64,000 nucleotides of DNA from an uncultured delta proteobacterium (GTDB lineage Bacteria > Desulfobacterota > Syntrophia > Syntrophales > UBA2185). Each line of letters starts with the position of its first letter. Position 1 is the first letter of the stretch. The notes beneath the pieces are model-generated. The model saw only the letters and a list, made by a program, of their open reading frames with translations, did no database searches and had not been told where the DNA came from. The position numbers and the translations under genes were made by a program. Of the stretch, positions 8,616-55,760 are shown one piece after another. The stretch is taken from assembly GCA_963695875.1 (NCBI GenBank), contig CAVOID010000008.1, positions 160,001-224,000 on the forward strand. The letters run 5' to 3'.

Positions 8616-10157
8616 TTATCCTTTGGTTTTCCTGGTGAGGGTCAGTAAGATGCCGGTGAGGAGAATATAGGCGAGTGCAATCGTGTAATGCGCATGTGAT
8701 GCGACCGCCCAGGGCAGGTAGACCTCGCCCGTGGGGAGCACAGAATGGATGATGCCAAAGGGGGTGAGTATGGCACAGGTCAAGGTGCAAAGAGCGGCAA
8801 GCCGCGGCTTGCGGTCGATCATGAAGGCCAGCATGCTGCCCCAGAGGAGCGCGGTTATTATGAAGCCGTTGCTGAGTACGGTCAGGCTCTGATGCAAAAC
8901 CTGTAAACGTATTGGAAGCATGTCGGATGTAATGGCCATGGCACCAAGGAACTGGCCGAGAATAATGATAATAAGGTTTGCGATAACCGGCATGAAACTC
9001 AGACTCACGGCCGGGGAATGTGCTTCAGGCGCCTCTTTATAAGCTTGATGGACTATCTCGAAACCGATATAGATAAAGATAGGGGCCAGCACCGCCCGGG
9101 GGATTAGACCCACGATCACGGACAGGAGACCGATCAGGGAGCCGATACCGATCAGCAGCGCAGTTAAGAGGGTGTACCAGTAGGTGGCGCCCATCTTCTT
9201 ATACGCCGGATGGCCGATATAGGGTGTGGTCTGAGCCACACCGCCAAAGAAGGCAGCGATCAAAGATGTGAACGCCTCGGTCAGAAGGATATCACGTGTG
9301 CGATACTTATCGCCCGCGAGACGGGCGCTCTCTGTATTGTTGATCCCGCCGATTATTGTCATAATTCCGAAAGGGATGGCAATAGGCAAGTACTGGATGC
9401 TTTGCGGCAGAGTTTTAAGGAATGCAATGGAGAAAACGGGCAGACAAAGGGCCATCTCAAAGGTTGGCTCCTTGAACTCCGGTATGTATCCATTGTAACC
9501 CAGGATGAAATGGATCGCAGTGCCCAGAAGCACCGCAATCAGCACGCCTGGGATGCGACCGGGAAGCTGCATCTTACCTAGGAGGACGGCAAAGATAATC
9601 CCCATGGCCACCATGCCCACGACGACCTCATTGAATATCTCAATAAGCGGCAAAAACCCAAGCAGCAGAAGGCCAACACCGGCGATGGACCCGAGAAGCC
9701 CAGCCGTAGGTATGATGCGCTGCACCCAGCCGCCGAGAAAGGAAGTGATGACCTTGACAATGCCGATCATGAACAGAGCGGCTATACCGATGTGCCAGGT
9801 AAGCTCTGCGTCATGTGTGGCGATATAGGCGGGTCCGAGCACGGCATAGACCAGACCTATGGAAGTGGGTGTATCAAGACCCAGCGGCATGGCGGTGACG
9901 TCGCTGCGGCCCGTTTTCTTTCGCAGTCGGATAGCCAGATAAGTATATACAAGATCGCCGAAGAATACCCCGATGGCAGTGCCCGGGATCATACGCGTCA
10001 GTATAATATCCGCTGGATAGTTGAAGGTGAACATGAGGATGGAGCTAAAAAATATAAGCACCCCGAGGTTATCGAGAAAGAGGGCCAGAAAGGCGGTTGT
10101 TTCCCCCCAGAACCTGTCCTGATTGAACGTGGTACGTTCCTTAATCATATAATCCAT
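8616..10157 (-). CDS. NCS2/AzgA-like nucleobase permease
   Basis: Polytopic; motifs TAMPLGLDTP, NNTESARLAGD and TTPYIGHPAYKKMGA. Confidence 0.75.
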   Translation of the reverse strand: MDYMIKERTTFNQDRFWGETTAFLALFLDNLGVLIFFSSILMFTFNYPADIILTRMIPGTAIGVFFGDLVYTYLAIRLRKKTGRSDVTAMPLGLDTPTSIGLVYAVLGPAYIATHDAELTWHIGIAALFMIGIVKVITSFLGGWVQRIIPTAGLLGSIAGVGLLLLGFLPLIEIFNEVVVGMVAMGIIFAVLLGKMQLPGRIPGVLIAVLLGTAIHFILGYNGYIPEFKEPTFEMALCLPVFSIAFLKTLPQSIQYLPIAIPFGIMTIIGGINNTESARLAGDKYRTRDILLTEAFTSLIAAFFGGVAQTTPYIGHPAYKKMGATYWYTLLTALLIGIGSLIGLLSVIVGLIPRAVLAPIFIYIGFEIVHQAYKEAPEAHSPAVSLSFMPVIANLIIIILGQFLGAMAITSDMLPIRLQVLHQSLTVLSNGFIITALLWGSMLAFMIDRKPRLAALCTLTCAILTPFGIIHSVLPTGEVYLPWAVASHAHYTIALAYILLTGILLTLTRKTKG

Positions 10158-28401: not shown

Positions 28402-29900
28402 TCAGCTGTTCTTCTTTATTTCAAATCCCGAAGCGGCAAGGCGTATTGCCTGCATCATTCCCTCACCCTTATTGACGGTTTCCTGATATTCCTTATCTGG
28501 GTCAGAATCGGCTACAATGCCGGCGCCAACCTGGATAAAAATCTTCCCGTCTTTGACTAGTATGGTTCTAATGGTTATGCAGAGATCCATATTCCCCGTA
28601 TAACTGAAGTATCCTACAGCACCTCCGTATGGTCCGCGCATGGTAGGCTCAAGTTCATCGATGATCTCCATGGCTCTCACCTTCGGTGCACCGGACAGTG
28701 TGCCGGCAGGGAAGGTTGCTCTCAGGACATCAAAACAGTCTTTTCCCTCAGATAATTGTGCCTGGATATTTGTGACAAGGTGCATTACATGGGAATACCG
28801 TTCTACACACCATAAGTTGATTTACCTGGACACTCCCGATCCGTGCTATCCTTCCCAGGTCATTTCTCCCCAGGTCAACCAGCATGACATGTTCCGCCCT
28901 CTCTTTGGGATCTTCGAGAAGCTCGTCGGCAAGGTGCCTGTCTTCCTGTTCGTTTTTCCCCCTTCTCCTTGTTCCGGCAATAGGTCTTAGTTCGGCTATT
29001 CCTTCTTCAAGGCGAACCATGACCTCGGGAGAGGAACCGATAAGAAACATATCATCAAGTTTGAGGAAAAAAAGGTAAGGGGATGGATTTACGTAACGAA
29101 GGGCACGATATAAATTAATTGGATCAATCCCGTTTTCTGTGTGAAATCGCTGTGAGAGGACAACCTGGATGATATCACCGGCAACAATGTATTCCTTTGC
29201 CATTCTGACAATGGACTTAAAAGCTTCAGGTGACATATTGGATTGGAGGGCGGCTTCGTTTTTCACCTTCTGATATTGTTCCTTTGTTTTCCAGGGGGGT
29301 TCTCAGGATATTGATCATCTCTTCTATCTTTTTGATTGTCTCGTTGTAGACCGTCTCAGGATCTTTATTATCTTCAATGAAGGCGCTCGAAACTACTTTA
29401 ATCGTGTGTCTGATATTATCAAAGACGATCAGGGTATCAGTAATGATAAAGATTGAATCGTCAGTCTTCAGGTCATCATGAGGCTTAGCATCAAGCTTTT
29501 CAAAATATCTAACCATATCATAACCTAAAAATCCAACGGCTCCACCATAAAACCGGGGTAGTCCATCCACAGGAACGGGGCGATAGATGTTAAGTAAATT
29601 TTTCAGAAATCTTAGGGGATCTCCATCGTGTTTGTAACAGTGAACCTTGTCATTTTCGTGGATCAGGACATCCTCACCTTTGACCTTGAAAATTATGCGG
29701 GGATCTGATCCAAGAAAGGTGAAACGTCCCCATTTCTCGCCACCTTCCACGCTCTCCAGAAGAAAGACATGGGATTTTGACCTTAGTTTCATGAGGGCCG
29801 ATACGGGTGTTTCTATGTCGGCCAGGATTTCCTTGTAGACGGGGATCAAATTGCCCTGGCAGGTAAATTTTTTGAATGTATCAATGTCCGGATAATACAT
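28402..29900 (-). CDS. trpE: anthranilate synthase component I, +1 frameshifts near 29258 and 28806
   Basis: [60 protein letters not shown] and [10 protein letters not shown] motifs. Confidence 0.95.
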
Positions 29901-29924
29901 GATTAATATTCCTTTTCTCCATTT

Positions 29925-30060
29925 TACAAAATAAAAAAGGCCGCTTATCATCACGGCCTCTTTGTTACACTCAAACATAAAAAAGCCGTGGAGACCGCAA
30001 GAGGTCTCCACGGCTTGTGCTTCAATTAATGAGAAGTTAGCGGTGGACAAACCTCTTTGT
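29925..30060 (-). promoter_or_regulatory. trp operon transcription attenuator: antiterminator plus two tandem terminators
   Basis: Terminator 1 is a 14-bp stem (29983-30016) with U-tract. Antiterminator arm AAGAGGT..TCCAC.GCT (about 30038-30057) pairs with AGC.GTGGA.ACCTCTT. Terminator 2 lies at 29931-29963. Confidence 0.9.
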
Positions 30061-30105
30061 TGAATTCTGCCACCACCAATTAATGTTTGAAAATTTTTGC
30101 TTCAT
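30037..30105 (-). CDS. trpL: trp leader peptide MKQKFSNINWWWQNSTKRFVHR
   Basis: 22-aa ORF with three consecutive TGG codons directly upstream of the attenuator and trpE. Confidence 0.9.
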   Translation of the reverse strand: MKQKFSNINWWWQNSTKRFVHR

Positions 30106-30136
30106 ATTCTATTCGCATGTATAAAAAGTTGAACGA

Positions 30137-44269: not shown

Positions 44270-45934
44270 ATGTTACATGAAGAAAATATGGCTTCGAGAC
44301 TTCGATGGTTAGTGATATCGAGAGTCGCAATCGTAACCTTTCTTTTAGGTATAACCACATTCTTTAATATACAGAAAACAGAACTACTGCCTGAGACGTC
44401 GATCACATCACTTTATATCATTTTTGCACTAACCTACTTCCTTTCAGTAGTTTACTTAATTCTTTTAAAGTTTGTTAAAAACCCCAAATTGAACGTATAC
44501 ATCCAGACCTTCTCAGATGTGGCATTGATAACAGGTCTTGTGTACGTAACAGGTGGAATTAGAAGTATATACTCGGTTCTTTATCCTTTGGTTATCATAT
44601 ACTCAGTTTTGTTTTTAGGAAAAAGAGGCGGACTCATTATCGCCTCCATTTCCAGCATTCTATACGGCTTATTACTTGATTTTGAATATTACAACGTTAT
44701 TCCTCCGATAAAATCTGCGGCAATTCACGATTATGACTTGAGTGCAGGGTACGTCTTTTCGAGAATCTTCATACACATTTTATCTTTTTATATAATCGCA
44801 TTGGTTGCCAGTTATGCAGTTGAACAAGAGAAGAAAACAAGGGTGCTTCTTGCCGAGAAAAGAACTGCCTTTGACAAACTTGATTTATTACACAGGATTA
44901 TTATTCAATCGGTCGATACAGGTATTATGACAATCGATCTCCAGGGCAGGATAAAATCTTTTAACAGGGCTGCAGAAGTAATATCGGGATTTGCCTTCGC
45001 TGAAATAGAAAATAGAAATGTCGTTGAAATATTTCCAGGCTTCGCACAGATGAGGGAGATTCTCAACGGAGAAGATAAAAGAGGTTCGGCAAAAAACAGA
45101 TACCATATGGATTTCGTAAACAAGGAAAATCAAATATCGATATTAGGGTATTCGGTATCAACTCTTAAGGATAATAAAGAGAAAATAATTGGAGACATCG
45201 TGATATTCCAGGATCTTACATCTATAATCAAAATGGAAGAAGCCCTCGAAAGAAGTAGAAAGCTTGCCATCATAGGTGAAATGGCTGCAGGTCTTGCCCA
45301 CGAGATGAGAAACCCTCTTGCGTCAATCAGCGGATCAATTCAAATCCTCAATAAGGATCTTGAATTAGGTGCAACAGACGAGAGGCTAATGCGAATAATT
45401 CTCCGGGGGAAGGATCAGCTCGAAAGTATAATAAAGGATTTTCTGCTACTTGCGAGACCGGCGCCGGGAAACAAAGAAAACATTTTTATAAAGGAAATTA
45501 TAGATGATGTAGTTGAATCCATTCATTTTGTGCCTGACTGGAATGATGGCATCAAGGTTTTTCTTTCGCTATCGGATAATTTGACAGTTCATGCAAACAA
45601 GACGGAAATGAAGGAAGTAATGTGGAACCTTATCCTGAATGCTGTTCAAGCTATGCCCGATGGGGGACTTTTGTCACTGGAGACGAGAAAGAAATTATCC
45701 GGTGATAATACAGATGAGTATCTTGAGATACTGGTGAGTGATACTGGTTGTGGCATTGATGAAACATATTTGAATCAGATTTTTGAACCGTTTTTCACGA
45801 CAAAGGAGAGAGGAACAGGCCTCGGTCTCGCCATAGTGAACAGAATTGTCGAGGGATATACCGGAACCATTAAGATTGAAAGCGAGATTGAAAGAGGGAC
45901 AACATGTACTATCTCTTTACCCTTTAATAAATAA
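44270..45934 (+). CDS. pilS: PilS-like sensor histidine kinase
   Basis: Six-TM N-terminus (TGGIRS), PAS domain, AHEMRNPL, NAVQAM and GTGLGL; adjacent to a pilR-like gene. Confidence 0.85.
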   Translation: MLHEENMASRLRWLVISRVAIVTFLLGITTFFNIQKTELLPETSITSLYIIFALTYFLSVVYLILLKFVKNPKLNVYIQTFSDVALITGLVYVTGGIRSIYSVLYPLVIIYSVLFLGKRGGLIIASISSILYGLLLDFEYYNVIPPIKSAAIHDYDLSAGYVFSRIFIHILSFYIIALVASYAVEQEKKTRVLLAEKRTAFDKLDLLHRIIIQSVDTGIMTIDLQGRIKSFNRAAEVISGFAFAEIENRNVVEIFPGFAQMREILNGEDKRGSAKNRYHMDFVNKENQISILGYSVSTLKDNKEKIIGDIVIFQDLTSIIKMEEALERSRKLAIIGEMAAGLAHEMRNPLASISGSIQILNKDLELGATDERLMRIILRGKDQLESIIKDFLLLARPAPGNKENIFIKEIIDDVVESIHFVPDWNDGIKVFLSLSDNLTVHANKTEMKEVMWNLILNAVQAMPDGGLLSLETRKKLSGDNTDEYLEILVSDTGCGIDETYLNQIFEPFFTTKERGTGLGLAIVNRIVEGYTGTIKIESEIERGTTCTISLPFNK

Positions 45935-45984
45935 CAGTATTGATGTATTGTGCAAAATAATTATGTTTTGCAGGGGAATGTCGA

Positions 45985-47349
45985 ATGGCAAAGATTCTAG
46001 TCGTGGATGACGATCAAGGAATGAGAGAATTTCTTGAAATCATGCTAACTAAAGAGGGGCATGACGTGACAAGTGCAGTTGATGCAACGAAAGCCCTGAA
46101 CCGTTGCAAGAAGGATCATTTTGATCTCATACTTACAGATTTAAAGATGCCAAAAGTCGATGGAATTGAATTTCTGAAATCAGTCAAGGATGTTTCTCCG
46201 GAAACAATGGTAATACTGATTACTGCCTATGCATCTCCGGAAACGGCAGTATCCGCCATGAAAGAAGGGGCATACGACTATATAGAGAAAGGCATTGATG
46301 TAGAAGAACTAAAGTCAATCATCAGCGGTGCTCTTGATAAGAAAGGGGTCGGGGAAACTGATGCTTTATTTATAAAGGTAGTTGAAGATGCCGTTTCATT
46401 CAGCAATATGATAGGGAAAAGCAGAGGCATGCTCAACGTATATAAAGACATTAAAAAAGTGGCAGAAACTCCGACAAACGTTTTAATCCTAGGTGAAAGT
46501 GGAACAGGCAAGGAACTTGTCGCTAAAGCTATCCATGAAAACAGCCCCAGGAAAAAAATGCCCTTTACTGTTGTTAACTGCGGTGGCGTTCCTGAAAGTC
46601 TGCTTGAGAGTGAATTCTTTGGTCATATGAAGGGTTCCTTTACCGGAGCACACGTCGATAAGCCCGGGCTTTTTGAGATCGCAAAAAATGGAACTATATT
46701 TCTGGATGAAATCGGTGAGTTACCCCCATATCTTCAAGTAAAACTTCTTAGAGTTGTGCAGGAAAAGACGTTCAGAAGGGTAGGGGGCGCGGAGGATATC
46801 AAAGTAGATGTCAGAATTATCTCAGCCACGAATAAGAATCTGGAAAAGAAAGTTAAGGATGGCTCCTTCAGGGAGGATTTATTTTATCGCCTCAATGTCA
46901 TACCAATACATGTGCCGCCCTTGAGAGAACGTAAGGAGGATATCCCTGTCTTAACTAAACATTTCATTGAAAAGTATTCCACGGCGTTTGGCAAAGAAAT
47001 CAAAACGATTTCATCCTATGCCATGGAACTCCTCATGAACTATCCATTTCCCGGCAATGTCAGAGAACTTGAGAATATTATTGAACGCAGTGTTGCTCTG
47101 GAAACATCAAATATCATATTGCCGGAGAATCTTTTAATATCGGGAAATATACAGGATGTAAGCGACTTTTCGGATGTTAACATACCGGATGATGGAATAG
47201 ACTTGAATGATGAAGTGGCAAAGTATGAGAGGTGCTTAATAGAGGAAGCTCTGAAGAAGGTGAAAGGATCTAAGACGAAAGCTGCTGAGATGCTTCGGGT
47301 AAGTTTTGATTCATTACGATACAGGATTGAAAAACTCGGCATAGACTGA
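45985..47349 (+). CDS. pilR: sigma-54-dependent response regulator (PilR/NtrC family)
   Basis: REC domain, GESGTGKE, ESEFFGHMKGSFTGA, FREDLFYRL, FPGNVREL and a C-terminal HTH. Confidence 0.85.
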   Translation: MAKILVVDDDQGMREFLEIMLTKEGHDVTSAVDATKALNRCKKDHFDLILTDLKMPKVDGIEFLKSVKDVSPETMVILITAYASPETAVSAMKEGAYDYIEKGIDVEELKSIISGALDKKGVGETDALFIKVVEDAVSFSNMIGKSRGMLNVYKDIKKVAETPTNVLILGESGTGKELVAKAIHENSPRKKMPFTVVNCGGVPESLLESEFFGHMKGSFTGAHVDKPGLFEIAKNGTIFLDEIGELPPYLQVKLLRVVQEKTFRRVGGAEDIKVDVRIISATNKNLEKKVKDGSFREDLFYRLNVIPIHVPPLRERKEDIPVLTKHFIEKYSTAFGKEIKTISSYAMELLMNYPFPGNVRELENIIERSVALETSNIILPENLLISGNIQDVSDFSDVNIPDDGIDLNDEVAKYERCLIEEALKKVKGSKTKAAEMLRVSFDSLRYRIEKLGID

Positions 47350-47368
47350 AATTAATAAGAATTTGCAC

Positions 47369-47397
47369 TTGACATTGATGCGGTTTGGTTTTATAAG
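47369..47397 (+). promoter_or_regulatory. sigma-70 promoter of the Phe-leader operon
   Basis: TTGACA-17 bp-TATAAG. Confidence 0.75.
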
Positions 47398-47429
47398 CAC
47401 GCCACGGGAAGAATTAAAGTAAGAGGGAA

Positions 47430-47513
47430 ATGATGGACATGCTGTGCATAAGGGTACAAATATTTTTTACTTTTTTTGCATTTTTTAGTGGGGTCTGCCT
47501 GCCGCGCTCATGA
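47430..47513 (+). CDS. phenylalanine-rich leader peptide MMDMLCIRVQIFFTFFAFFSGVCLPRS
   Basis: 27-aa uORF with RBS AGAGGG and six TTT codons in FFTFFAFF; its 3' end is the antiterminator arm. Confidence 0.85.
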   Translation: MMDMLCIRVQIFFTFFAFFSGVCLPRS

Positions 47514-47610
47514 CCTGGAATTGTTAATAGAGCCGCGGGCAGACCGTTTAGCTGTCCGCGGCTTTTTTTATGTAAAAGGCTGTGGATTCTCCAGAGCCTT
47601 TTTTTATTTT
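47492..47610 (+). promoter_or_regulatory. Phe-responsive transcription attenuator: antiterminator plus two tandem terminators
   Basis: Antiterminator GGTCTGCCTGC (47492-47502)/GCGGGCAGACC (47535-47545). Terminator 1 AGCCGCGGGCAG/CTGTCCGCGGCT plus U-tract. Terminator 2 AAAAGGCT-G-TGGA/TCCA-G-AGCCTTTT plus U-tract. Confidence 0.85.
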
Positions 47611-47624
47611 ACAGGGGGATTGAT

Positions 47625-48830
47625 ATGAAAAAAATATTCTATGGGATTCTTTGCACAGTACTTACGGGATTCATTCCTTTGTGTCTTATTTCGGGCGCAG
47701 ATGCGAAAACAATAAAAGTCGGTGCAGCAATAAACATGACTGGTCCTGCATCCACCTGGGGGCAATTTCATGCCAAGGGTCAGCAGGACTATTTCCGGTA
47801 CGTAAACGAGGTTAAAGGCGGCGTCGGAGGGAACAAGATCGAAATGATTCTTGTTGATACGGGGTACAAAGTCCCGGAGGCTGTCTCGGCTGTGAAAAGA
47901 TTTGCCATTCAGGATGAAGTTGATATGATTGCAACCTGGAGTGCCGGCGAAGGGCTGGCAGCAAAACCGATTATCCAGCAATATAAAATACCAGCCATCA
48001 ATTATTCTACGAGCTGGGAGATTCTTGAGTCACCGATAAGCTACATGTATTTGCCCTTTGGCAGCTATCGGTTGGACAGTTATGCAATTCTCGAATACAT
48101 ACGCACTATACACAAGGGAAAAGATGCACCGAAGGTAGGACTTTTGACATATAACAACGCATATGGCCGCTCTATACATCAACCTTGCAAGGAATACGCA
48201 AAAAAAATAAATATTAACATTGTTGCCATTGAAGAGTTTCCGCCGAAGACTGTGGATTTAACCACTGAATTGCTGCGTTTGCAGAAAAGCGGTGCGGAAT
48301 ATGTATTCATGCAAATACTTCCTGCCGCTATTATAACGGCATTCAAGAGTGCGGACCGCATCAATTATAACCCGGCATTTTTCGGTACCTGGACATCAAC
48401 AGACCCTGATTTTTTTAAGCTTGGCAAGGGCTTGATAAAAGATCGCCTGCGCATTCAGTTTTCAGGAGGTCTCCCTGTTGATAAGAGTCAGGGCATGAAA
48501 GTTATGACGGAACTGTGGAAACGCTACAAAACGGTCGATAAGTTCGATGCCTCATACTGGGAAGGCGTAGTGATAGGCATGATAATGGAAAGGGCATTCA
48601 TCCGGGCCAATCAAAAATATAAAGTAATCAACAGAGAAACAATCAACAAGGCTATGGAGTCGTTTAAGAATGAAGATTTTGGCGGTCTTGTTCCGAATAT
48701 TACATACGCAGCGGATGATCATGGGGGATCATTCAAAGCCAGGATTGTAAAAGTCAGAGAAGACGGTTCATATGCACCTATGACGAATTTCTTTAATCCC
48801 CTGAAGGAAAAGATCAAGTTATTGAAGTAA
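47625..48830 (+). CDS. ABC transporter substrate-binding protein (LivJ/HAAT family)
   Basis: Signal peptide, IKVGAAINMTGPA, VNEVKGGV.G.KIE..LVDTGY and NNAYGRS. Confidence 0.9.
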   Translation: MKKIFYGILCTVLTGFIPLCLISGADAKTIKVGAAINMTGPASTWGQFHAKGQQDYFRYVNEVKGGVGGNKIEMILVDTGYKVPEAVSAVKRFAIQDEVDMIATWSAGEGLAAKPIIQQYKIPAINYSTSWEILESPISYMYLPFGSYRLDSYAILEYIRTIHKGKDAPKVGLLTYNNAYGRSIHQPCKEYAKKININIVAIEEFPPKTVDLTTELLRLQKSGAEYVFMQILPAAIITAFKSADRINYNPAFFGTWTSTDPDFFKLGKGLIKDRLRIQFSGGLPVDKSQGMKVMTELWKRYKTVDKFDASYWEGVVIGMIMERAFIRANQKYKVINRETINKAMESFKNEDFGGLVPNITYAADDHGGSFKARIVKVREDGSYAPMTNFFNPLKEKIKLLK

Positions 48831-48843
48831 CCGTATCGGATCT

Positions 48844-49671
48844 ATGAAAGCATATCGAGGAAAACCAAGCATATTCGATACCCGGAATGCGGAAGATAGG
48901 ATTGCAGAACTTAATGTCTGTAACCTTTCCTTGAGTTTTGGCGGTGTCAAGGCACTGAGCGATATCGATCTTTCTGTGAGTACCGGTGAACTGGTGGCAA
49001 TCATTGGGCCGAACGGTGCCGGAAAGACAAGTCTTTTGAACTGTATAACGGGCTTCTACAGACCGCAGAAGGGACGCATTCTTTTTAACGGCAAGGATAT
49101 AACTCATTTGCCACCTCACCATCTTGTCCGGATAGGCATAGGAAGGACTTTTCAAAACATCGAGCTGTTTCCCGGCATGACAGTTCTATCAAACATGCTT
49201 CTTGCTCGCCATAACCACTGCAAATATGGGATCGCTCCGGCTTGTCTTTTCTCATCATCAATACGAAAAGAGGAGATTCATCACCGTCGCGTCCTGGAAG
49301 AACTGATCGATTTTTTGGAAATCCAGGCCATCAGGAAAAAGACTGTGGGATCATTGCCGTACGGTTTGATGAAGAGGGTTGAACTGGGCCGTGCACTTGC
49401 CCTGGAGCCGGCTCTTCTGATTCTTGATGAACCATTCGCAGGAATGAACCTCGAAGAGAAGGAAGACATGGTACGTTTCTTGACAGAGATGAACCAAGCG
49501 TGGGGTCAGACGATGATTCTGGTAGAACATGACATGTCTATAGTGATGAGTATTTCTCAGCGAATTGTAGTATTGAACTTCGGTGAAAAACTGGCTGAGG
49601 GTAACCCGGATCAAATCAGAAACCATCCAGAGGTAATCAAAGCATATCTCGGTGATACAGTCAGTGTTTGA
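48844..49671 (+). CDS. ABC transporter ATP-binding protein (LivG-like)
   Basis: FGGVKAL, GPNGAGKT, RTFQNIELF, LPYG, LDEP, VEHDM and VIKAYLG. Confidence 0.92.
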   Translation: MKAYRGKPSIFDTRNAEDRIAELNVCNLSLSFGGVKALSDIDLSVSTGELVAIIGPNGAGKTSLLNCITGFYRPQKGRILFNGKDITHLPPHHLVRIGIGRTFQNIELFPGMTVLSNMLLARHNHCKYGIAPACLFSSSIRKEEIHHRRVLEELIDFLEIQAIRKKTVGSLPYGLMKRVELGRALALEPALLILDEPFAGMNLEEKEDMVRFLTEMNQAWGQTMILVEHDMSIVMSISQRIVVLNFGEKLAEGNPDQIRNHPEVIKAYLGDTVSV

Positions 49672-51629
49672 TGAATAAGGTATTTCCTGTGGCCAGTTAT
49701 AAAATTGCGGATGATGAAATACTTGCATCTTTATCTCAATATACGTTGCCCCAGATTTTGTCAAAGCAGGCGGAGAGACTCGGATCGGAAGAGACAGCTA
49801 TTCGAGAAAAGGCATATGGTATCTGGCAGACATATAGCTGGCAGGATTATTACCGATATGTGAAAAGAACCGGACTCGGCTTAATCGCTATCGGACTTAA
49901 AAAAGGGGACAATGTTGGCATCATTACAAACAACGTCCCGGAATGGCTCTTTAGTGAAATCGGCTGTCAGTCAGTCGGCGGGATATCCCTCAATCTTTTT
50001 ACGTCTTCTGTTGCGGAAGAATTGTGTCATGCCCTGAGTCGTATTAAAGCGGCCTATATCATCGCCCAGGACCAGGAGCAGGTAGACAAGATAATTGAAA
50101 GTCGTGAGAAACTGACTCATGTTTGCCGGGTCATCTATATAGATCCAACTGGGATGAGGACATATAAAGACAACCCCTGGCTACTCAGTTTTTCTGATCT
50201 TTTAGAGTTAGGCGAGAATCTTGACCGTGAAAAGCCTGATTTTTTTTCAGAGGAATTGCAGAAGGGCAGGAGGGACAATATTGCCATAATGATACAGACC
50301 TCGGGGACGATGGGAATTTCAAAACTTGCCATGCTGTCACATCGGAACATAACCGAAATGGCCAGGAAGTGGGTGGAAGCTCTTCAAATAAAACCCGGGG
50401 GAAACTGGATTTCAATATCTCCGCCGGCATGGATTGTAGATCAGATGTGGGGAGTAGGTGTGGCGCTCCTGGGCGGGATGGTCATGAATTTTCCTGAAAT
50501 GCCGGATACGATAGCCGAAGATTTTCGAGAAATCGGATCATCAATTATCATCACGTCATCGCGTTTCTGGGAGGATCTGGCCTCACGTATTATGGTTAAA
50601 ATGGACGATGCCGGTTTTATCAGGCGTAACCTCTTTGTCTATTCCATTAGAATAGGGAAAAAGGTTGTGGGGATTCAATCACAAAAAAAGGTTGTTCCCG
50701 GATATCTGAATTTACTTTATCGAATTTCCTCAGTAATGATCTACAGACCCTTGCTCGATAGAGTAGGATGTGCCTGTTTTAAAGGCGCCTTTACGGGAGG
50801 TCATCCTATTAGTCCTGATGTGATTCATTTTTTTCGCGCTATTGGATTAAATCTTAAGCAGTGTTACGGTCTGACCGAAGCAGGTGGAATATTCCAGGTT
50901 CAGCCCGATGGCGAAGTAAAGCTGGAGTCAGTAGGGAAGCCGCTGCCCAGGACCCTTGTGAAAATAGCAGATGATCAGGAAGTTCTGGTCCAGAGTGATT
51001 CAAACTTTGTAGGATACTATAACGATTTCAGAGCGACAGAAGATGCCTTTGACGGCGGATGGCTCAGAACCGGTGACGCAGGTTATATAGATAAAGACGG
51101 TCATCTCGTGATTATCGGGCGTAAGGGCGATATTATCAAAAACAAAGACGGAGAAGCATTTTCACCGGATTTCATAGAGACACGTCTCAAGTTCAGTCCA
51201 TATATCAAGGAAGCCGTAATGTTTGGTGAGGGGCGTCCATACATCACCGCACTTATTAATATTGACATGGGCAACGTAGGGAACTGGGCTGAAGAGCGCA
51301 TGATACCGTACACAACATACATAGACCTGTCTCAACAATCAGCTGTTGAGGACCTCGTACTTGATGAAGTCAGAAGGGTAAATATCAATCTGCCGGATAC
51401 CATGAAGGTCCGGAAATTCATATTGCTCTATAAACTCCTGGATGCCGATGATGAGGAGCTGACGAGAACGGGGAAGGTGCGCAGGAGATTTATTTATGGA
51501 CTCTATCTTAAACTCATAGAAGCGATGTATACAGGAAGGGATCAGGTTGATATCAAAACAAAAATCCAGTATCGAGACGGGCAGATAGGCGAAATTGAAA
51601 CTACAGCGAAAATAATTAAGGTTATTTAA
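49668..51629 (+). CDS. long-chain-type acyl-CoA synthetase (AMP-binding)
   Basis: QTSGTMGISK, YGLTE, GWLRTGDAG, GRKGDII and ELTRTGKVRR motifs. Confidence 0.88.
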   Translation: MMNKVFPVASYKIADDEILASLSQYTLPQILSKQAERLGSEETAIREKAYGIWQTYSWQDYYRYVKRTGLGLIAIGLKKGDNVGIITNNVPEWLFSEIGCQSVGGISLNLFTSSVAEELCHALSRIKAAYIIAQDQEQVDKIIESREKLTHVCRVIYIDPTGMRTYKDNPWLLSFSDLLELGENLDREKPDFFSEELQKGRRDNIAIMIQTSGTMGISKLAMLSHRNITEMARKWVEALQIKPGGNWISISPPAWIVDQMWGVGVALLGGMVMNFPEMPDTIAEDFREIGSSIIITSSRFWEDLASRIMVKMDDAGFIRRNLFVYSIRIGKKVVGIQSQKKVVPGYLNLLYRISSVMIYRPLLDRVGCACFKGAFTGGHPISPDVIHFFRAIGLNLKQCYGLTEAGGIFQVQPDGEVKLESVGKPLPRTLVKIADDQEVLVQSDSNFVGYYNDFRATEDAFDGGWLRTGDAGYIDKDGHLVIIGRKGDIIKNKDGEAFSPDFIETRLKFSPYIKEAVMFGEGRPYITALINIDMGNVGNWAEERMIPYTTYIDLSQQSAVEDLVLDEVRRVNINLPDTMKVRKFILLYKLLDADDEELTRTGKVRRRFIYGLYLKLIEAMYTGRDQVDIKTKIQYRDGQIGEIETTAKIIKVI

Positions 51630-51639
51630 GGTATAGCTT

Positions 51640-52518
51640 ATGAGCTTTTTTCTACAACTTTTCATAAATGGTATAAGTATTGGTTTTTTATATGGGCTGT
51701 CCGCCATGGGTTTTGTCATGATTTTTAAATCTTCCAGCGTCCTAAATTTTGCACATGGCGAGTTACTTGCCTTAGGGGCCTTCTTTTTTCTGGCCATGGT
51801 GACATGGGCCAAATTACCTATTGTGGTTGCCTTCCTGGTGACCCTCGTAGGTTGTTTTGTTTTGGGATTTCTGATTGAAAGATTATTTCTGCGTCCTCTT
51901 ATCGGTGAGCCTCTCATCTATGTGATCATGCTGACAGTGGGACTGGCTTCTATGTTCAGAGGTATAATGCTCTTTATATGGGGAGGAAATTTGCAGACCT
52001 ATCCTGATTTTCTGCCTGAATCTCTCAGTATTCGGTGGGACGTGATTAACGTACCGCCGGCCTATACCGCAGCTCTTATTATCGGGGTACTTTTTCTTAT
52101 ACTTTTTGGTCTTTTCTTCAAGTATTCTTCACAAGGCATATTTATGAGATCTGTAGCTGATAATCAAAAAGCGGCACTCTCATTGGGGGTTCATGTTCAA
52201 AAGGTCTTTGCACTATCGTGGGCTATTGCTGCACTTGTGGCCGGCATGAGCGGTATTGTAATGGGTGTTATAAATGGCATTAACGTGCATGATCTCAGCG
52301 CCATTGGACTCAAGGTATTCCCTGTGGTTATCCTTGGAGGTCTGGACAGCATTGGCGGTGCGATTCTTGGCGGTCTCATTATAGGTATTCTGGAAACATT
52401 CACCGGGGGCTATATTTCACCGTCGCTCCGTGATGTTGTACCATATATTGTACTTGTATTTATCCTCATGATAAAACCATATGGGCTTTTTGGCCTGGTG
52501 GAAATTGAAAGGGTATAA
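51640..52518 (+). CDS. ABC transporter permease (LivH-like)
   Basis: LNFAHGEL, RSVADNQKAALSLG, VILGGLDS and KPYGLFG. Confidence 0.92.
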   Translation: MSFFLQLFINGISIGFLYGLSAMGFVMIFKSSSVLNFAHGELLALGAFFFLAMVTWAKLPIVVAFLVTLVGCFVLGFLIERLFLRPLIGEPLIYVIMLTVGLASMFRGIMLFIWGGNLQTYPDFLPESLSIRWDVINVPPAYTAALIIGVLFLILFGLFFKYSSQGIFMRSVADNQKAALSLGVHVQKVFALSWAIAALVAGMSGIVMGVINGINVHDLSAIGLKVFPVVILGGLDSIGGAILGGLIIGILETFTGGYISPSLRDVVPYIVLVFILMIKPYGLFGLVEIERV

Positions 52519-52525
52519 GTCAGTA

Positions 52526-53596
52526 ATGAAAAGATTTCATTTCCATCCCTGCGGTAATTACAGGGAAAAATACGAACAAGAAATTACTGTCTTCGAGACC
52601 GACTTCGGCAGACTTTGGCTGTGGATCGGCATTTTTCTCCTTTTCGTCATAGTTCCATTCATAAGCAGTCCTTATTTCCTACATGTACTGAATACAATCG
52701 GGATAGCATCAATTGCGGCGATCGGGTTAAATATCCTTATCGGATACACGGGACAGATATCTCTTGGTCACGGGGCCTTCATCGGCGTCGGGGCTTATGC
52801 CGCTGCAATACTTGCAACGTCAGCAAACATTCCTTTTCTTCTTAACCTGCCGATGGCCGGACTGGTATCTGCCCTGGTAGGTATGATTTTCGGCATACCA
52901 TCCGGACGTCTCAAAGGCCTGTACCTCACAATTGCAACGCTTGCTGGCCAGATTATCATTGAATATGTTTTAATCCACTGGGAAAGTCTAACGAAAGGCA
53001 CTATGGGAATTACACTTCCCAGCCCCTCCATTTTTGGATTCGAATTAGCCAGCGATAAAGACTTCTTTTTTATGATATTCGTAAGCCTCATAGTAATGAT
53101 CTGGATAGCGGTAAACCTTATGAGAACAAAATATGGCAGAGCCTTTATTGCGATTCGAGATAATGACCGGGCTGCGGAAGGTATGGGTATTCCAATTTTC
53201 AGGTACAAGCTCCTTTCTTTTGGAATCAGCTCGTTCTATGCAGGCTTTGCCGGTGCAATATGGGCTTATTACATGGTCAGCATCACATCAGAACCATTCA
53301 ACCTGGGTCTCTCCGTCGAATACATCGCAATGGTGATCATAGGCGGCCTGGGAAGTATTACCGGTTCCATTTATGGCGCCATCTTTATAACCTTTTTGAA
53401 TGAAATTCTGAGATGGCTGACGGATATCGTGATGAACGTGGGAATCTTCACGGAAGCTGGTTTGAATGTGGCACCATTGAGAGAATTTTTCTTTGGACTG
53501 GCGATAGTTCTCTTCATTCTCTGTGAGCCGCGCGGACTTGCGGAGATATGGCGTATTATACGTTCCAACTTCAGGCTGTGGCCGTTTGCTTATTAA
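52526..53596 (+). CDS. ABC transporter permease (LivM-like)
   Basis: GLNILIGYTGQISLGHGAF, LKGLYLTIATL, AIRDND.AAE.MG and IIGGLGS. Confidence 0.92.
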   Translation: MKRFHFHPCGNYREKYEQEITVFETDFGRLWLWIGIFLLFVIVPFISSPYFLHVLNTIGIASIAAIGLNILIGYTGQISLGHGAFIGVGAYAAAILATSANIPFLLNLPMAGLVSALVGMIFGIPSGRLKGLYLTIATLAGQIIIEYVLIHWESLTKGTMGITLPSPSIFGFELASDKDFFFMIFVSLIVMIWIAVNLMRTKYGRAFIAIRDNDRAAEGMGIPIFRYKLLSFGISSFYAGFAGAIWAYYMVSITSEPFNLGLSVEYIAMVIIGGLGSITGSIYGAIFITFLNEILRWLTDIVMNVGIFTEAGLNVAPLREFFFGLAIVLFILCEPRGLAEIWRIIRSNFRLWPFAY

Positions 53597-53607
53597 GAGT
53601 TATCCGC

Positions 53608-54411
53608 ATGACTGAAAGTACTATTCTCGAGATCAACAATATATCTGTCGTTTATTCAGATGTTATTCAGGTCCTTAAGGGAGTATCCCTTATCGTTGAA
53701 CGGGACTCCATTGTGTCCCTTCTGGGCAGCAACGGTTCCGGAAAATCGACAACGCTGAAGGCCATATCTGGCCTGCTTAAACCTGAAAACGGCAAGGTGA
53801 CGGAAGGGACCATTATGTATGATGCAAAGCCCATTCAGAATCAGTCTCCCGAGGTCATTACGCGCAAGGGAATAATTCAGGTTCTGGAAGGCCGTCAGCC
53901 TTTCAAATATTTGACTGTTGAAGAAAACCTTATTGTCGGAACGGCCATCAGGTGGCGGAAGCCTTATAAGAAAGATCTGGAAATGGTTTATCATTATTTC
54001 CCCGCCATATTGAAAAGAAGGAAGATGCTGGCCGGATATTGCAGCGGTGGAGAACTTCAAATGATTGTCATGGGAAGGGCTTTGATGGCCCACCCGGCTC
54101 TTTTGCTTTTGGATGAGCCTTCTCTCGGGCTTGCTCCCATGGTTGTGAAGGAAATATTTCAGATCATAAAAAAGATAAATGAGGAACAGGGAACAACAAT
54201 TATGCTCGTCGAACAGAATGCCAATATGGCCCTGCAGATTTCTGATTATGGTTATGTAATGGAAAATGGAAAGATCGTTATGGAAGGTGGTGCAAAGACC
54301 CTTGTTGAGAATCCCGATATAAAAGAATTCTACTTGGGTATGGGGGCAACGGGCGTGTTAAAATCATATAAAGATGTCAAATCATATCGCCGTCGAAAGA
54401 GATGGCTGTAA
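53608..54411 (+). CDS. ABC transporter ATP-binding protein (LivF-like)
   Basis: GSNGSGKST, SGGELQM, LDEPSLGLAP and VEQNA. Confidence 0.92.
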   Translation: MTESTILEINNISVVYSDVIQVLKGVSLIVERDSIVSLLGSNGSGKSTTLKAISGLLKPENGKVTEGTIMYDAKPIQNQSPEVITRKGIIQVLEGRQPFKYLTVEENLIVGTAIRWRKPYKKDLEMVYHYFPAILKRRKMLAGYCSGGELQMIVMGRALMAHPALLLLDEPSLGLAPMVVKEIFQIIKKINEEQGTTIMLVEQNANMALQISDYGYVMENGKIVMEGGAKTLVENPDIKEFYLGMGATGVLKSYKDVKSYRRRKRWL

Positions 54412-54503
54412 ATAGATGGCGTGGTATCCGAAGAAAGATCTTTCATTCAGCATTGACGAGAACAATTTTTGGATCTGCAAAAACTTTATGAGGGATATAG
54501 CCT

Positions 54504-55760
54504 ATGGCAGATTGTTATGATTATAAAGAATGTGTGCCTGTGGAAGAAAGAGAACGCAGGCGCTCACTACTAATAATGGAAATGCTCAAGTCGGGTTATC
54601 AAAAATCAAGTCGCATAAGAAAGATGTTTGCCCAGCTGAAGATGGATCATTCTGAAATTAAAACCCTGAGTGATTTCGAAAAACTTCCTGTTATCTCCAG
54701 GGGAAAGCTAATTGAGCTCGAAATGTCGGAACCTCCATACGGAGGGCTGAACAATTCAGACTCAGATGTTGATAGAATTTTTATTTCTCCTGGTCCTGTA
54801 TATGAACCACACCTCTCGGAGAATGACAACCTATGGGCAAGGGCATATTATGCTGCCGGCATCGGAAAGGGAGATGTGGTTCTCAATGCTTTTTCCTACC
54901 ACATGGTTGCTGCCGGCTTGACCTTCCATGGAGGATTAAGACACATTGGTGCTACAGTCATCCCTTCTGGAACTTCAAGTTCACAACTTCAGGTACAGTT
55001 AATTCGCGACCTATCTGTAACAGCTTATGCAGGCACTCCCAGTTTTTTAATGAGCATTATAAATAAAGCAGAAGAAATGGGTTATGATTTTAAGAAAGAT
55101 TTCAGGATGAGGCGAGCCTGCTTTGCCGCGGAACCTCTTGCGCCATCGTTGAGAGAAAAATTCGAGCGGGAATATGCTATTGACACATATCAGATGTATG
55201 GCGCAACGGAAGTGGGGGATGTATCTTTTGAATGCAGAGAAAAGAAAGGATGGCATATCTGTGAAGAAGTCCTTCTGGAGATTATTGATCCGGCCACAGG
55301 GAAAAGTGTGCCGCCTGGAACGATGGGTGAAGTTGTCGTTACCCGGTTCAATAACATTTTCTTCCTTTTCCGGTTCGGGACCGGTGATCTTTCAAGAGTA
55401 ATAGAGTCACCATGCACCTGCGGAAGAACATCGTTTCGCTTGGATGGCATTGCCGGACGAGTGGGCGATGCGGTGAAAGTCAGGGGACTTTTCATCGCAC
55501 CGAGTCAGCTTAATAAAATCAAGGAAAAATTCTATAGTGTTAAATTCCAGCTCCTTGTCAGCCGAACTTCTCATGAGGATATTTTAACCGTGAAACTGGA
55601 GCTGAAAGAGGCAGGAATGAATACCGTATCCCTGGAAGAGAACTTCAGGGATCATTTCAAAGATGTATGTACGGTGAGAATTGACCGTCTGGAATTTTTG
55701 AATCCCGGCACATTAAGAGATGATGATAAAATGATCGTCGATCAGCGCGAGTGGAAATAG
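54504..55760 (+). CDS. phenylacetate-CoA ligase family protein
   Basis: FEKLPV, AGIGKGDVVLNAFSYH, YAGTPSF, YGATE, LEIIDPATG, RFGTGD, CTCGRT and VKVRG. The P-loop reads FISPGP rather than SSGTTG. Confidence 0.8.
   Translation: MADCYDYKECVPVEERERRRSLLIMEMLKSGYQKSSRIRKMFAQLKMDHSEIKTLSDFEKLPVISRGKLIELEMSEPPYGGLNNSDSDVDRIFISPGPVYEPHLSENDNLWARAYYAAGIGKGDVVLNAFSYHMVAAGLTFHGGLRHIGATVIPSGTSSSQLQVQLIRDLSVTAYAGTPSFLMSIINKAEEMGYDFKKDFRMRRACFAAEPLAPSLREKFEREYAIDTYQMYGATEVGDVSFECREKKGWHICEEVLLEIIDPATGKSVPPGTMGEVVVTRFNNIFFLFRFGTGDLSRVIESPCTCGRTSFRLDGIAGRVGDAVKVRGLFIAPSQLNKIKEKFYSVKFQLLVSRTSHEDILTVKLELKEAGMNTVSLEENFRDHFKDVCTVRIDRLEFLNPGTLRDDDKMIVDQREWK

Follow-up and report, generated by a model that had tools for sequence, protein, structure and literature searches.

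We examined what a short, phenylalanine-rich open reading frame does ahead of a seven-gene uptake and CoA-ligase operon within the genome of an uncultured member of the Syntrophales, and what that operon carries into the cell. The window, i.e., the whole stretch of DNA analysed (64,000 nt), supplies all of the coordinates given here. An earlier note, made from the letters of this DNA, proposed that a Phe-sensing leader peptide controls the operon, and that the operon imports and activates phenylacetate or a related aryl acid as a route to Phe. Our answer to the first part is that a Phe-codon leader, competing hairpins and two terminators very probably switch on the transporter-CoA-ligase operon of this syntrophic anaerobe at Phe shortage; we put the probability that 47369-47610 is a ribosome-mediated, Phe-sensing transcription attenuator at about 0.85. 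The attenuator itself is classical in type and its target operon is unusual. The answer to the second part is more tentative.

The leader, all on the plus strand, begins with a sigma-70-type promoter read directly from the DNA (47369-47397: TTGACA at 47369-47374, a 17-nt spacer, TATAAG at 47392-47397); the relatives displayed likewise have TTGAC(A/T)-17-TATA(A/T)G upstream of their leaders. This promoter was not among the calls of a simple promoter scanner, because the scanner's rule requires T as the last base of the second hexamer. The uORF (47430-47513), also read directly and with homologous uORFs in relatives, has 27 codons plus a stop, TGA at 47511-47513, and encodes MMDMLCIRVQIFFTFFAFFSGVCLPRS; it starts at ATG 47430, or at the alternative ATG 47433, which is better spaced from GAGGG (47423-47427). 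Six of the eight codons at 47463-47486 encode Phe, all as TTT, in the arrangement FFxFFxFF. Folding places the antiterminator 5' arm (segment 2, 47492-47509) within the 3' end of the uORF, ending 2 nt before the stop codon. Folding and alignment place segment 3 at 47530-47545, which serves both as antiterminator 3' arm and as 5' arm of the intrinsic terminator T1 (47529-47569: hairpin 47529-47565, U7 47563-47569), so that the two structures are mutually exclusive. The promoter, uORF, antiterminator arm and overlapping terminator of the earlier note were thus all recovered by reading and folding. A second intrinsic terminator, T2 (47574-47605: hairpin 47574-47602, U7 47599-47605), is additional to that description; as with T1, it was identified by fold and covariation.

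When 47487-47570 is folded (-34.6 kcal/mol, z -2.75), the two antiterminator arms (47492-47509 / 47530-47545) pair with each other. The T1 hairpin is at -25.6 kcal/mol (z -5.74) and the T2 hairpin at -15.8 kcal/mol (z -4.45), with 0/200 shuffles equally stable in either case. Clustered codons for the sensed residue, a terminator before the first structural gene and an antiterminator sharing an arm with it are the marks by which, from sequence, the element would be classed as a ribosome-mediated attenuator. Folding revealed no leader segment 1 that might sequester segment 2, and the antiterminator would therefore be the default fold in the absence of translation. The minimum-energy fold of 47487-47612 with segment 2 free still contains T2; the case for polymerase passing T2 is therefore a kinetic one, backed by segments 4 and 5 being 81% paired.

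The earlier note had held that its reading would fail if the T-runs were homopolymer errors, or were not conserved as in-frame Phe codons. The former is excluded: contigs from two independent public runs cover the leader in one piece, and because these spanning contigs show only substitutions inside the uORF, the Phe run is not a homopolymer or assembly artefact; the indels between them (47427, 47547 and 47599) all lie outside the Phe codons. As for the latter, each of the six Phe columns holds a Phe codon (TTT or TTC) in 31-36 of 37 aligned sequences, with TTC used 33 times overall; the two spacer codons between the Phe codons take 11 different forms each in this alignment. To judge from these columns, selection is acting on the leader codons and not on the nucleotide sequence as such. 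Across the entire genome (2.86 Mb) we found 39 short ORFs having a one-residue run and a terminator, and this leader alone was of the Phe type.

Orthologous operons were compared for conserved Phe-codon uORFs and covarying stems, as the note had advised, and both were found. Among distinct regions ahead of orthologous binding-protein genes, 47/64 have the same leader element, all 47 of them in Syntrophales, and an FFxFFxFF-type uORF was present in 30/30 loci fetched from relatives; a strict RNA-scaffold pattern matched in 185/339 genomes of the order (reversed control pattern, 0). Across the 37 sequences the main antiterminator helix had 92.2% of cells paired, vs 33-41% with the partner slid. 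T1 had 89.6% of cells paired, with both partners altered in 15 cells, and T2, which certain lineages lack (alignment rows L028, L029, L072, L074), had compensatory changes in 8/12 pairs; in each case 0/500 shuffles matched. In 46/60 leaders preceding the binding-protein gene, the GGTCTGCC arm starts 19 nt ahead of the stop codon. Outside the order, a Phe leader was seen in 0/11 orthologous operons with the upstream region on the contig (12 fetched).

The codon content of the leader follows the regulated gene, because one scaffold bears different residues before different targets: the instances before the binding-protein gene (n=60) are Phe-rich with 0-1 Trp, those before DAHP synthase (3/63 instances) have leaders mixed for Phe, Tyr and Trp, and a Tyr-rich leader precedes a DeoC/LacD-family aldolase gene outside the order. 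The organism appears from its sequence to use the leader-peptide mechanism at other loci too. A WWW leader stands ahead of its trpE (30037-30105, minus strand, peptide MKQKFSNINWWWQNSTKRFVHR), and two Ile/Val-rich leaders stand ahead of acetolactate-synthase-type TPP enzymes. Read by eye, terminator-type hairpins with T-runs follow these leaders, two each for the trpE and the Val/Ile/Leu-rich leaders and one evident for the Ile-rich leader.

We conclude therefore from the anatomy, the in-frame codon conservation, the covarying stems and the target-matched codon content that this is probably a classical Phe attenuator; comparative evidence strongly supports the claim that the leader controls the operon. 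Since a Phe-codon leader is joined to a mutually exclusive antiterminator and terminator, the operon should be on when Phe-tRNA is scarce, and the same anatomy and conservation, together with codon selection and stem covariation, suggest that read-through depends on Phe. In the proposed mechanism, transcription would start constitutively at the sigma-70-type promoter and a ribosome would translate the 27-codon leader. With Phe-tRNA in good supply, this ribosome would reach the stop codon and cover segment 2, leaving segments 3 and 4 to pair; T1 would form, with T2 as back-up, and transcription would stop before the binding-protein gene. Under a shortage of Phe-tRNA, the ribosome would instead stall early in the Phe run (47463-47477), with segment 2 still 15-29 nt downstream; the pairing of segments 2 and 3 would then block T1, and RNA polymerase would enter the seven genes. 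A ribosome stalled at the last two Phe codons would cover segment 2 in part. The freed segment 4 may pair with the T2 5' arm in a relay that disarms T2.

The seven genes on the plus strand agree by Pfam with the content given in the earlier note: a periplasmic substrate-binding protein (47625-48830, 401 aa, Peripla_BP_6, HAAT-type); a LivG-like ABC ATPase (48844-49671, ABC_tran + BCA_ABC_TP_C); an acyl-CoA synthetase-like enzyme (49668-51629, 653 aa, AMP-binding + AMP-binding_C_3; Pfam and NCBIfam); LivH-like and LivM-like permeases (51640-52518 and 52481-53596, both BPD_transp_2); a LivF-like ABC ATPase (53548-54411, ABC_tran); and a PaaK-family (phenylacetate-CoA-ligase-like) adenylate-forming ligase (54504-55760, 418 aa; Pfam and NCBIfam). 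Peripla_BP_6, the two BPD_transp_2 proteins and two ATPases, one with the BCA_ABC_TP_C tail, make up a HAAT (Liv-type) importer. The synthetase gene shares its first 4 nt with the end of the LivG gene, and it is embedded in the transporter operon in 35/35 loci reaching LivF (44 loci in all); the best NCBIfam match of its product is FadD11-like at 246 bits, far under the cut-off of 950. The 93-nt gap after LivF held no terminator-like site, and the PaaK-family gene is probably co-transcribed with the operon. Such a ligase gene is downstream in 18/35 loci reaching LivF, and by our count it accompanies 15/21 leader-bearing vs 2/9 leaderless loci, the kin among these not being independent. With scores below the equivalog cut-offs (TIGR02155, 187.1 vs 646.3 bits; NF041878, 210.7 vs 700), the 418-aa protein is by sequence a member of the wider PaaK-like family; among solved chains it comes closest to 4r1l, which bears the name phenylacetate-CoA ligase (E 3e-49). 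The AlphaFold model of the binding protein (pLDDT 95.1) is nearest to 3lkb (23% identity), crystallised with valine, the second-best neighbour being the fatty-acid binder 4n03; the ligands of the remaining solved neighbours are fatty acids, Leu, aromatic acids or phenylpyruvate. The protein scored 49.2 bits against the LivJ/LivK-type model NF011933 (NCBIfam; cut-off 477), and neither its sequence nor its fold discriminates the ligand class.

It is very improbable that the uORF is no sensor, the T-rich stretch and hairpins being terminators of the upstream two-component genes with a chance frame, or the uORF encoding a functional small hydrophobic peptide. The region is T-rich, T-runs yield Phe codons in one frame of three, and the leader is close behind the stop of the response-regulator gene (47349); a promoter stands between that gene and the uORF, however, and the frame, the stop position and the Phe codons are kept with synonymous changes while adjacent codons drift. 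A conserved antiterminator overlapping the terminator also speaks against such an origin, as does the recurrence of the scaffold behind different upstream genes and, with other aromatic residues encoded, ahead of genes of aromatic pathways, and the C-terminal VCLPRS of the peptide is accounted for by the RNA arm that it overlaps. Given the Phe attenuator, the simplest logic for a Phe-starvation switch would have the importer take Phe itself or aromatic amino acids, as a LIV-type system in which both ligases serve another purpose. The HAAT-type transporter, the valine in 3lkb, the presence of pheA, which removes dependence on precursors, and the PaaK-like gene being dispensable (missing in 6/21 leader-bearing loci) all fit; but an acyl-CoA synthetase gene set between ATPase and permease genes throughout the loci, with its 4-nt overlap, would be useless to an amino-acid importer, and the binding protein is only 15-23% identical to any amino-acid-binding structure and far from the LivJ-type model. 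We consider Phe uptake unlikely.

We also doubt that the cargo is a carboxylic acid from which Phe is not made (e.g., a fatty acid, benzoate or cyclohexane carboxylate), with Phe-tRNA charging a proxy for general starvation or another need. In its favor, the embedded ligase is most like long-chain or FadD11-like synthetases, 4n03 binds fatty acid, the Phe leader is absent from the orthologous operons of other families within the phylum, and in a more distant Syntrophales-related group the operon precedes a generic FadD-like ligase and, in one case, an acyl-CoA dehydratase activase with its partner. Against this, leader codons match the target everywhere the scaffold occurs, and at the Trp leader of trpE and the Ile/Val leaders; codons so tuned, with a Phe-only leader kept in 47 regions, argue for a Phe-specific role. 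There remains the salvage of a phenyl-carboxylic acid, e.g., phenylacetate, which would pass through its CoA thioester and reductive carboxylation by indolepyruvate:ferredoxin oxidoreductase to phenylpyruvate and Phe; we give this somewhat less than an even chance. HAAT binding proteins labelled "branched-chain" frequently bind aromatic or fatty acids, according to PMC3223731. The earlier note's aryl-acid import and activation is coherent with the embedded synthetase, the PaaK-family ligase and the IorA-type genes found in 58/61 relatives (intact IorA over cut-off in 47/61). Less favorable to it are the PaaK-like scores, the absence of the Phe leader from operons beyond the order, and the genome context: of iorA/iorB and pheA, which the note suggested seeking, pheA is present, and iorA/iorB appear to be, in pieces broken by frameshifts in this assembly and unlinked, 37 kb from the operon (IorA as two adjacent pieces, 412.6 + 284.3 bits, single-protein cut-off 650.9; IorB as a 138-aa piece). 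Since pheA is present, as in 59/61 relatives, the aryl-acid route would be only a supplement. The probable Phe control of the operon assigns this uncharacterised uptake system to the cell's Phe supply; if salvage is true, the operon is anabolic, a phenylacetate-type acid feeding Phe alongside pheA.

Literature searches found no report of a Phe attenuator on an uptake and CoA-ligase operon of this kind, in agreement with the earlier remark that none had been described. In pheL-pheA and pheM-pheST, a Phe-codon leader lets ribosome position pick antiterminator or terminator, and expression rises when Phe-tRNA is scarce. The present leader resembles these in its short Phe-run ORF and its antiterminator/terminator choice, but has a three-segment design without a 1:2 hairpin and a second terminator in tandem, controls an uptake and CoA-ligase operon in place of pheA or pheST, and belongs to Syntrophales (Thermodesulfobacteriota), whereas those two leader-peptide attenuators are enterobacterial (for pheL, PMC3082878). 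It has no Rfam match in sequence or structure: cmscan of 47200-47800 with E up to 10 gave ten chance-level matches and no leader family, the Phe leader (RF01859) included. The textbook trp operon attenuator, modelled with a segment 1, is alike in mechanism, but Trp vs Phe codons and the target genes differ and the 1:2 hairpin is absent here; the genome's trpE leader, as read from sequence, likewise has two terminator-like hairpins and their T-runs behind it. The Firmicutes T-box controls amino-acid transporters by sensing uncharged tRNA through direct RNA-RNA contact; here too tRNA charging would govern a transporter operon and the specifier hints at the substrate class, but the sensor would be a translating ribosome. 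PMC2965389 mentions cases of a switch between T-box and leader peptide. For the operon, the nearest likeness is with HAAT-family aromatic-acid uptake systems beside CoA ligases, e.g., CouPSTU with the coumarate-CoA ligase gene of Rhodopseudomonas palustris; these are catabolic, and the passages of PMC3223731 consulted report no amino-acid attenuator for them. In both, Peripla_BP_6 and Liv-type genes adjoin an aryl-CoA (or similar) ligase gene and "branched-chain amino acid" labels mislead; the CouPSTU-type binding proteins are 16-20% identical to this one, and here a ligase gene is embedded among the transporter genes. Rumen bacteria and Methanococcus maripaludis convert aryl acids to aromatic amino acids via indolepyruvate:ferredoxin oxidoreductase, a route for which we know of no described transporter or attenuator. 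IorA-type genes recur among the relatives of this organism, in which the route is a candidate; were it operating, it could account for Phe shortage calling up both an importer and a CoA ligase.

The leader of the operon (47369-47610, plus strand) was read from its promoter to the binding-protein gene (47625-48830). The promoter (TTGACA at 47369-47374, 17 nt, TATAAG at 47392-47397) lies 3' of the response-regulator stop codon (47349); it was absent from the list of a simple scanner because of that scanner's own -10 hexamer rule, and the same list held T1, the first terminator, in a short form only. A Shine-Dalgarno sequence GAGGG (47423-47427) stands 5' of two ATG codons (47430, 47433), and the uORF, whose peptide reads MMDMLCIRVQIFFTFFAFFSGVCLPRS, contains six Phe codons, all TTT (47463-47486), and stops at TGA (47511-47513). 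Folding gave an antiterminator whose long helix joins 47492-47509 (segment 2, within the uORF) with 47530-47545 (segment 3), at -34.6 kcal/mol for 47487-47570 (z -2.75); the T1 hairpin (47529-47565, followed by U7), at -25.6 kcal/mol (z -5.74, 0 of 200 shuffles), which excludes the antiterminator helix; and a further hairpin, T2 (47574-47602, followed by U7), at -15.8 kcal/mol (z -4.45). The promoter, the uORF with six Phe codons, the antiterminator arm and the overlapping terminator described in an earlier note were all found in the sequence and the folds; T1 is the terminator of that note, which had overlooked T2. An Rfam scan of the leader (E up to 10) returned chance-level matches only.

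We infer from the established attenuation model that ribosome position would switch this leader, whose parts, overlap and conservation are seen directly. A ribosome stalled at Phe codons 1-4 would end 15-29 nt 5' of segment 2, leaving segment 2 free to pair with segment 3 and so to block T1; a ribosome at the stop codon, 2 nt past segment 2, would cover segment 2, and T1 would form. With segment 2 masked, the predicted fold was T1 plus T2 (-41.8 kcal/mol). Compared with the trp paradigm, segment 1 is absent here, so that an untranslated leader would fold as the antiterminator, and a second terminator follows. The 3' arm of T1 (segment 4) can also form a helix with the 5' arm of T2, at -18.8 kcal/mol (81% of alignment cells paired vs 35-52% when slid); the minimum-energy structure predicted for the whole leader contained this helix, and that of 47487-47612 lacked it. 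Such a relay might carry the T1 decision over to T2, and we put it forward as a kinetic hypothesis only.

We examined if the leader could be a product of chance or of faulty assembly. The assembly (2.86 Mb, 16 contigs, 82.6% complete) was scanned for short ORFs with a one-residue run and a terminator downstream; among the 39 candidates four were, by our reading, real amino-acid leaders, and this was the only one of Phe type. A WWW Trp leader, MKQKFSNINWWWQNSTKRFVHR (30037-30105, minus strand), lies directly 5' of the gene for anthranilate synthase component I (trpE), and two terminator-like hairpins with T-runs come after it (29890-30110, minus strand); the trp genes apparently run on to about 22476. 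On contig 3 an Ile-rich leader (..VVTIAIIIGIIIPF..) and a Val/Ile/Leu-rich leader (..ILIVAVVVVLVL..) stand before acetolactate-synthase-type TPP enzymes (G000 C3:160756-160845 and 163282-163368, minus strand; L032:6757-6846 and 9283-9369 in the fetched locus), with two terminator-type hairpins with T-runs after the Val/Ile/Leu-rich leader and one evident after the Ile-rich leader; the hairpins of these three leaders were read from the sequence and left unfolded. Together with the Phe leader, they indicate that classical attenuation is routine in this organism.

The T-runs of the uORF could have been homopolymer errors, as the earlier note had allowed. Contigs from two independent runs, about 98% identical to the leader, read through it without a break, and within the uORF they differ by substitutions only, one of which changes FFTFF to FFIFF; indels occurred at 47427, 47547 and 47599. 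Since the uORF differs by substitutions alone in both runs, its T-runs are not homopolymer errors. A look-up of RNA runs containing this stretch of DNA listed none. Elsewhere, genes were found split into adjacent frames: a DAHP synthase gene in three pieces (1353-2367, minus strand), iorA in two pieces and iorB without its N-terminus (G000 C8:245272-247654; L042:7273-9654), dnaJ in two pieces beside them (L042:10008-10953), and a LivG paralogue on contig 3 in two pieces (L123:6433-7288). These broken genes mean either that the assembly has indel errors or that the genes are decaying.

Orthologues of the binding protein (E up to 1e-60) were present in 47 of 61 related genomes; related contigs are titled Syntrophales, Syntrophaceae, Smithellaceae or Smithella. 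All 30 loci fetched first had an FFxFFxFF-type uORF ending in ...VCLPRS; these and 44 further loci gave 64 distinct upstream regions, 47 of which bear the leader. The binding proteins behind the 17 leaderless regions were 62-71% identical in 16 cases and 72% in one (L083). Each of the six Phe columns was TTT or TTC in 31-36 of the 37 aligned sequences (TTC 33 times overall), and the two spacer codons took 11 forms each; because the Phe columns are kept as TTT/TTC while the spacers vary, selection acts on the codons and not on the RNA sequence. The conserved in-frame Phe codons and covarying stems that had been proposed as a check were thus borne out. In the alignment, pairing in the antiterminator main helix reached 92.2% of cells (vs 33-41% with the partner slid), in T1 89.6% (both sides changed in 15 cells, 0 of 500 shuffles) and in T2 84.4% (compensatory in 8 of 12 pairs, 0 of 500 shuffles). 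Although kinship among the sequences inflates these figures, the slid controls and the compensatory pairs favour the structures.

The conserved RNA can be written as a scaffold, GGTCTGCC ... GCCGTGGG ... CCCACGGC-T run, of which the fetched loci held 63 distinct instances. A strict form of this pattern matched in 185 of 339 genomes of the order (reversed control 0), a lower bound since known carriers with a variant segment 4 escape it, and in 7 of 201 sampled genomes of the phylum, 3 of the 7 being outside the order. Sixty instances precede the binding-protein gene and have at least 4 Phe codons (usually 6), no more than one Trp and some Tyr; in 46 of these 60 the stop codon falls 19 nt 3' of where the GGTCTGCC arm begins, and leaders of a variant group, FFFF(F)-x-stop, have it just 5' of that arm. 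The other three (L089, L090 and L107, from genomes G066, G067 and G091) are mixed Phe/Tyr/Trp leaders, e.g., MDTKTANGTFNGFWGYYYPWVCPLPLSH, and stand before a gene for DAHP synthase (PF00793 with its ferredoxin-like domain). Outside the order (L117 and L118, from G497 and G430), the same scaffold was found with a Tyr-rich leader, MGEKGLYSPGYYYFYCYGTVVCPSSLG, before an aldolase gene of the DeoC/LacD family and, in another genome, with a Phe/Tyr-rich leader. The instances look like a family of recoded aromatic attenuators. Since the leaders of the DAHP synthase, aldolase-family and binding-protein genes differ in their codons, codon content follows the regulated gene, and this is the strongest argument for a Phe-specific role of the operon. 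One RNA scaffold recoded for different aromatic amino acids before different genes is also a clean natural experiment on attenuator evolution.

Behind the leader, the seven genes listed in the earlier note agreed with Pfam. The order binding protein, LivG, acyl-CoA synthetase, LivH, LivM, LivF was found in 35 of 35 loci reaching LivF; the other 9 of the 44 stop at contig edges, and a differing order was seen in none. The synthetase gene begins within the end of LivG, with a 4-nt overlap. In 18 of these 35 loci a PaaK-like gene (here 54504-55760) follows in the same orientation, unrelated genes intervene before it in five loci, and by our count, in which kin are not independent, it lies downstream in 15 of 21 leader-bearing vs 2 of 9 leaderless loci; the 93-nt gap 5' of this gene in the window contained no terminator-like site. 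The nearest solved chain to its product is 4r1l, named phenylacetate-CoA ligase (E 3e-49), and the protein scored far under the PaaK equivalog cut-offs; the embedded synthetase scored 246 bits as FadD11-like, vs a cut-off of 950. A second HAAT operon, followed by a PaaK-like ligase (435 aa), lies on contig 3 (G000 C3:323500-336500; L123), broken by a MULE-type transposase gene between a binding-protein fragment and the permease genes, so that the pairing of a Liv-type importer with a PaaK-family ligase recurs in this genome.

The subfamily of the binding protein is narrow: among 1.84 billion proteins, one cluster stood at 64% identity and the next full-length representatives at 38% or less. 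Its AlphaFold model (pLDDT 95.1) was closest, by Foldseek against the PDB, to valine-bound 3lkb (23% identity), then to a fatty-acid binder and to Leu-, aromatic-acid- and phenylpyruvate-binding proteins, all neighbours being at 15-23% identity; PDB sequence search, AlphaFold model, Foldseek and protein atlas did not tell the ligand class apart. One report (PMC3223731) describes 22 binding proteins of Rhodopseudomonas with a "branched-chain" annotation: Leu, Ile, Val and short amides gave no shift with any of them, and their ligands were aromatic acids, fatty acids or dicarboxylates.

On the same strand upstream (44270-47349) lies a PilS/PilR-like pair, a histidine kinase whose six-helix membrane domain is of PilS type and a response regulator that is sigma-54-dependent, with ComEC 5' of the pair; the order ComEC, kinase, regulator, leader, operon, recJ is syntenic in many relatives. 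The pair was considered as a regulator of the operon, and as no GG-N10-GC sigma-54 promoter was seen by eye in the leader, they were taken as unrelated neighbours. A survey of 20 loci around embedded-ligase homologues in other families of the phylum gave 12 orthologous operons outside the order (binding protein 59-69% identical), with a Phe leader or terminator in 0 of the 11 that had their upstream region on the contig, and 8 paralogous loci whose binding proteins were unrelated, or with none in reach; leaders rich in another amino acid (Trp, Leu etc.) were seen in none of the 20. A conserved stretch in the leaderless distant orthologues, translated as KFFTCNNFLD, proved to be promoter-like (TTGCAA-17-TATAAA) and was rejected as a leader motif. 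A promoter-like stretch, TTTTTTACTTGCAAT.., 17 nt, TATA(C/A)AAT, is common to leaderless L056, L059, L061-L063, L085, L125, L127, L128 and L131, about 300-400 nt 5' of the binding-protein gene, giving a long 5' untranslated region. At the distant orthologous locus L060, an acyl-CoA dehydratase activase and its partner of dehydratase/double-cubane type (L060:18989-21093) lie downstream of the operon and a FadD-like ligase, a hint of aromatic or 2-hydroxyacyl-CoA chemistry beside this transporter family.

Control by the leader very probably puts the operon in the Phe-supply regulon, and a ligase gene fixed inside a transporter operon suggests that the cargo is a carboxylic acid. In rumen bacteria and Methanococcus maripaludis, Phe is formed from phenylacetyl-CoA by reductive carboxylation with indolepyruvate:ferredoxin oxidoreductase, the sole acyl-CoA-to-Phe route known to us. 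As proposed in the earlier note, salvage of a phenylacetate-type acid to Phe is the most coherent reading of operon function, to which we give a probability of about 0.45. Several observations stand against certainty: the binding protein is uninformative on its ligand, the PaaK-like gene is optional, the orthologous operons of other families lack the Phe leader, and the distant leaderless group has a generic FadD-like ligase after the operon instead of the PaaK-like gene. Nor is iorAB linked to the operon; IorA was found in 58 of 61 relatives (above cut-off in 47), and the iorA pieces and shortened iorB of this genome lie 37 kb away. In many relatives IorA is on the same contig as the operon, about 10-38 kb apart, which we took as general synteny and not as linkage. 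The genome also has pheA (a 360-aa chorismate mutase/prephenate dehydratase), and PDT domains occur in 59 of 61 relatives; pheA has no leader of its own there, since it overlaps the end of the upstream gene.

A fuller version of the salvage reading is offered more tentatively. On Phe starvation, Syntrophales might use the importer and acyl-CoA synthetase, often aided by the PaaK-family ligase, to capture the phenylacetate of fermenters, convert it to the CoA thioester and pass it to Phe via indolepyruvate:ferredoxin oxidoreductase, with 4-hydroxyphenylacetate taken where the leader has Tyr codons; a single scaffold, with codons for Phe, for Tyr or for all three aromatic residues, would join uptake with de novo synthesis as one regulon of these peat and sediment syntrophs. 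If so, the codon content of the leader would naturally mark what an orphan transporter-ligase family carries, and aromatic fermentation products could be returned to amino acids by cross-feeding in energy-starved methanogenic communities.

Leader-peptide attenuators are textbook systems, and to our knowledge nearly all those described control genes for biosynthesis or for tRNA synthetases, in Proteobacteria and Actinobacteria. A search of open-access full texts yielded no Phe leader on a transporter/ligase operon and no Syntrophales attenuators, and passages of PMC2965389, PMC2836559 and PMC5109826 mention neither. Here attenuation is kept across an order of uncultured syntrophs, on an operon for uptake and CoA ligation whose database labels read "branched-chain amino acid" or "long-chain fatty acid", and this gives a specific, testable hint of function for an orphan system that is widespread. 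The leader falls outside the Rfam Phe leader family, which it did not match; its working principle would be like that of pheL-pheA and pheM-pheST.
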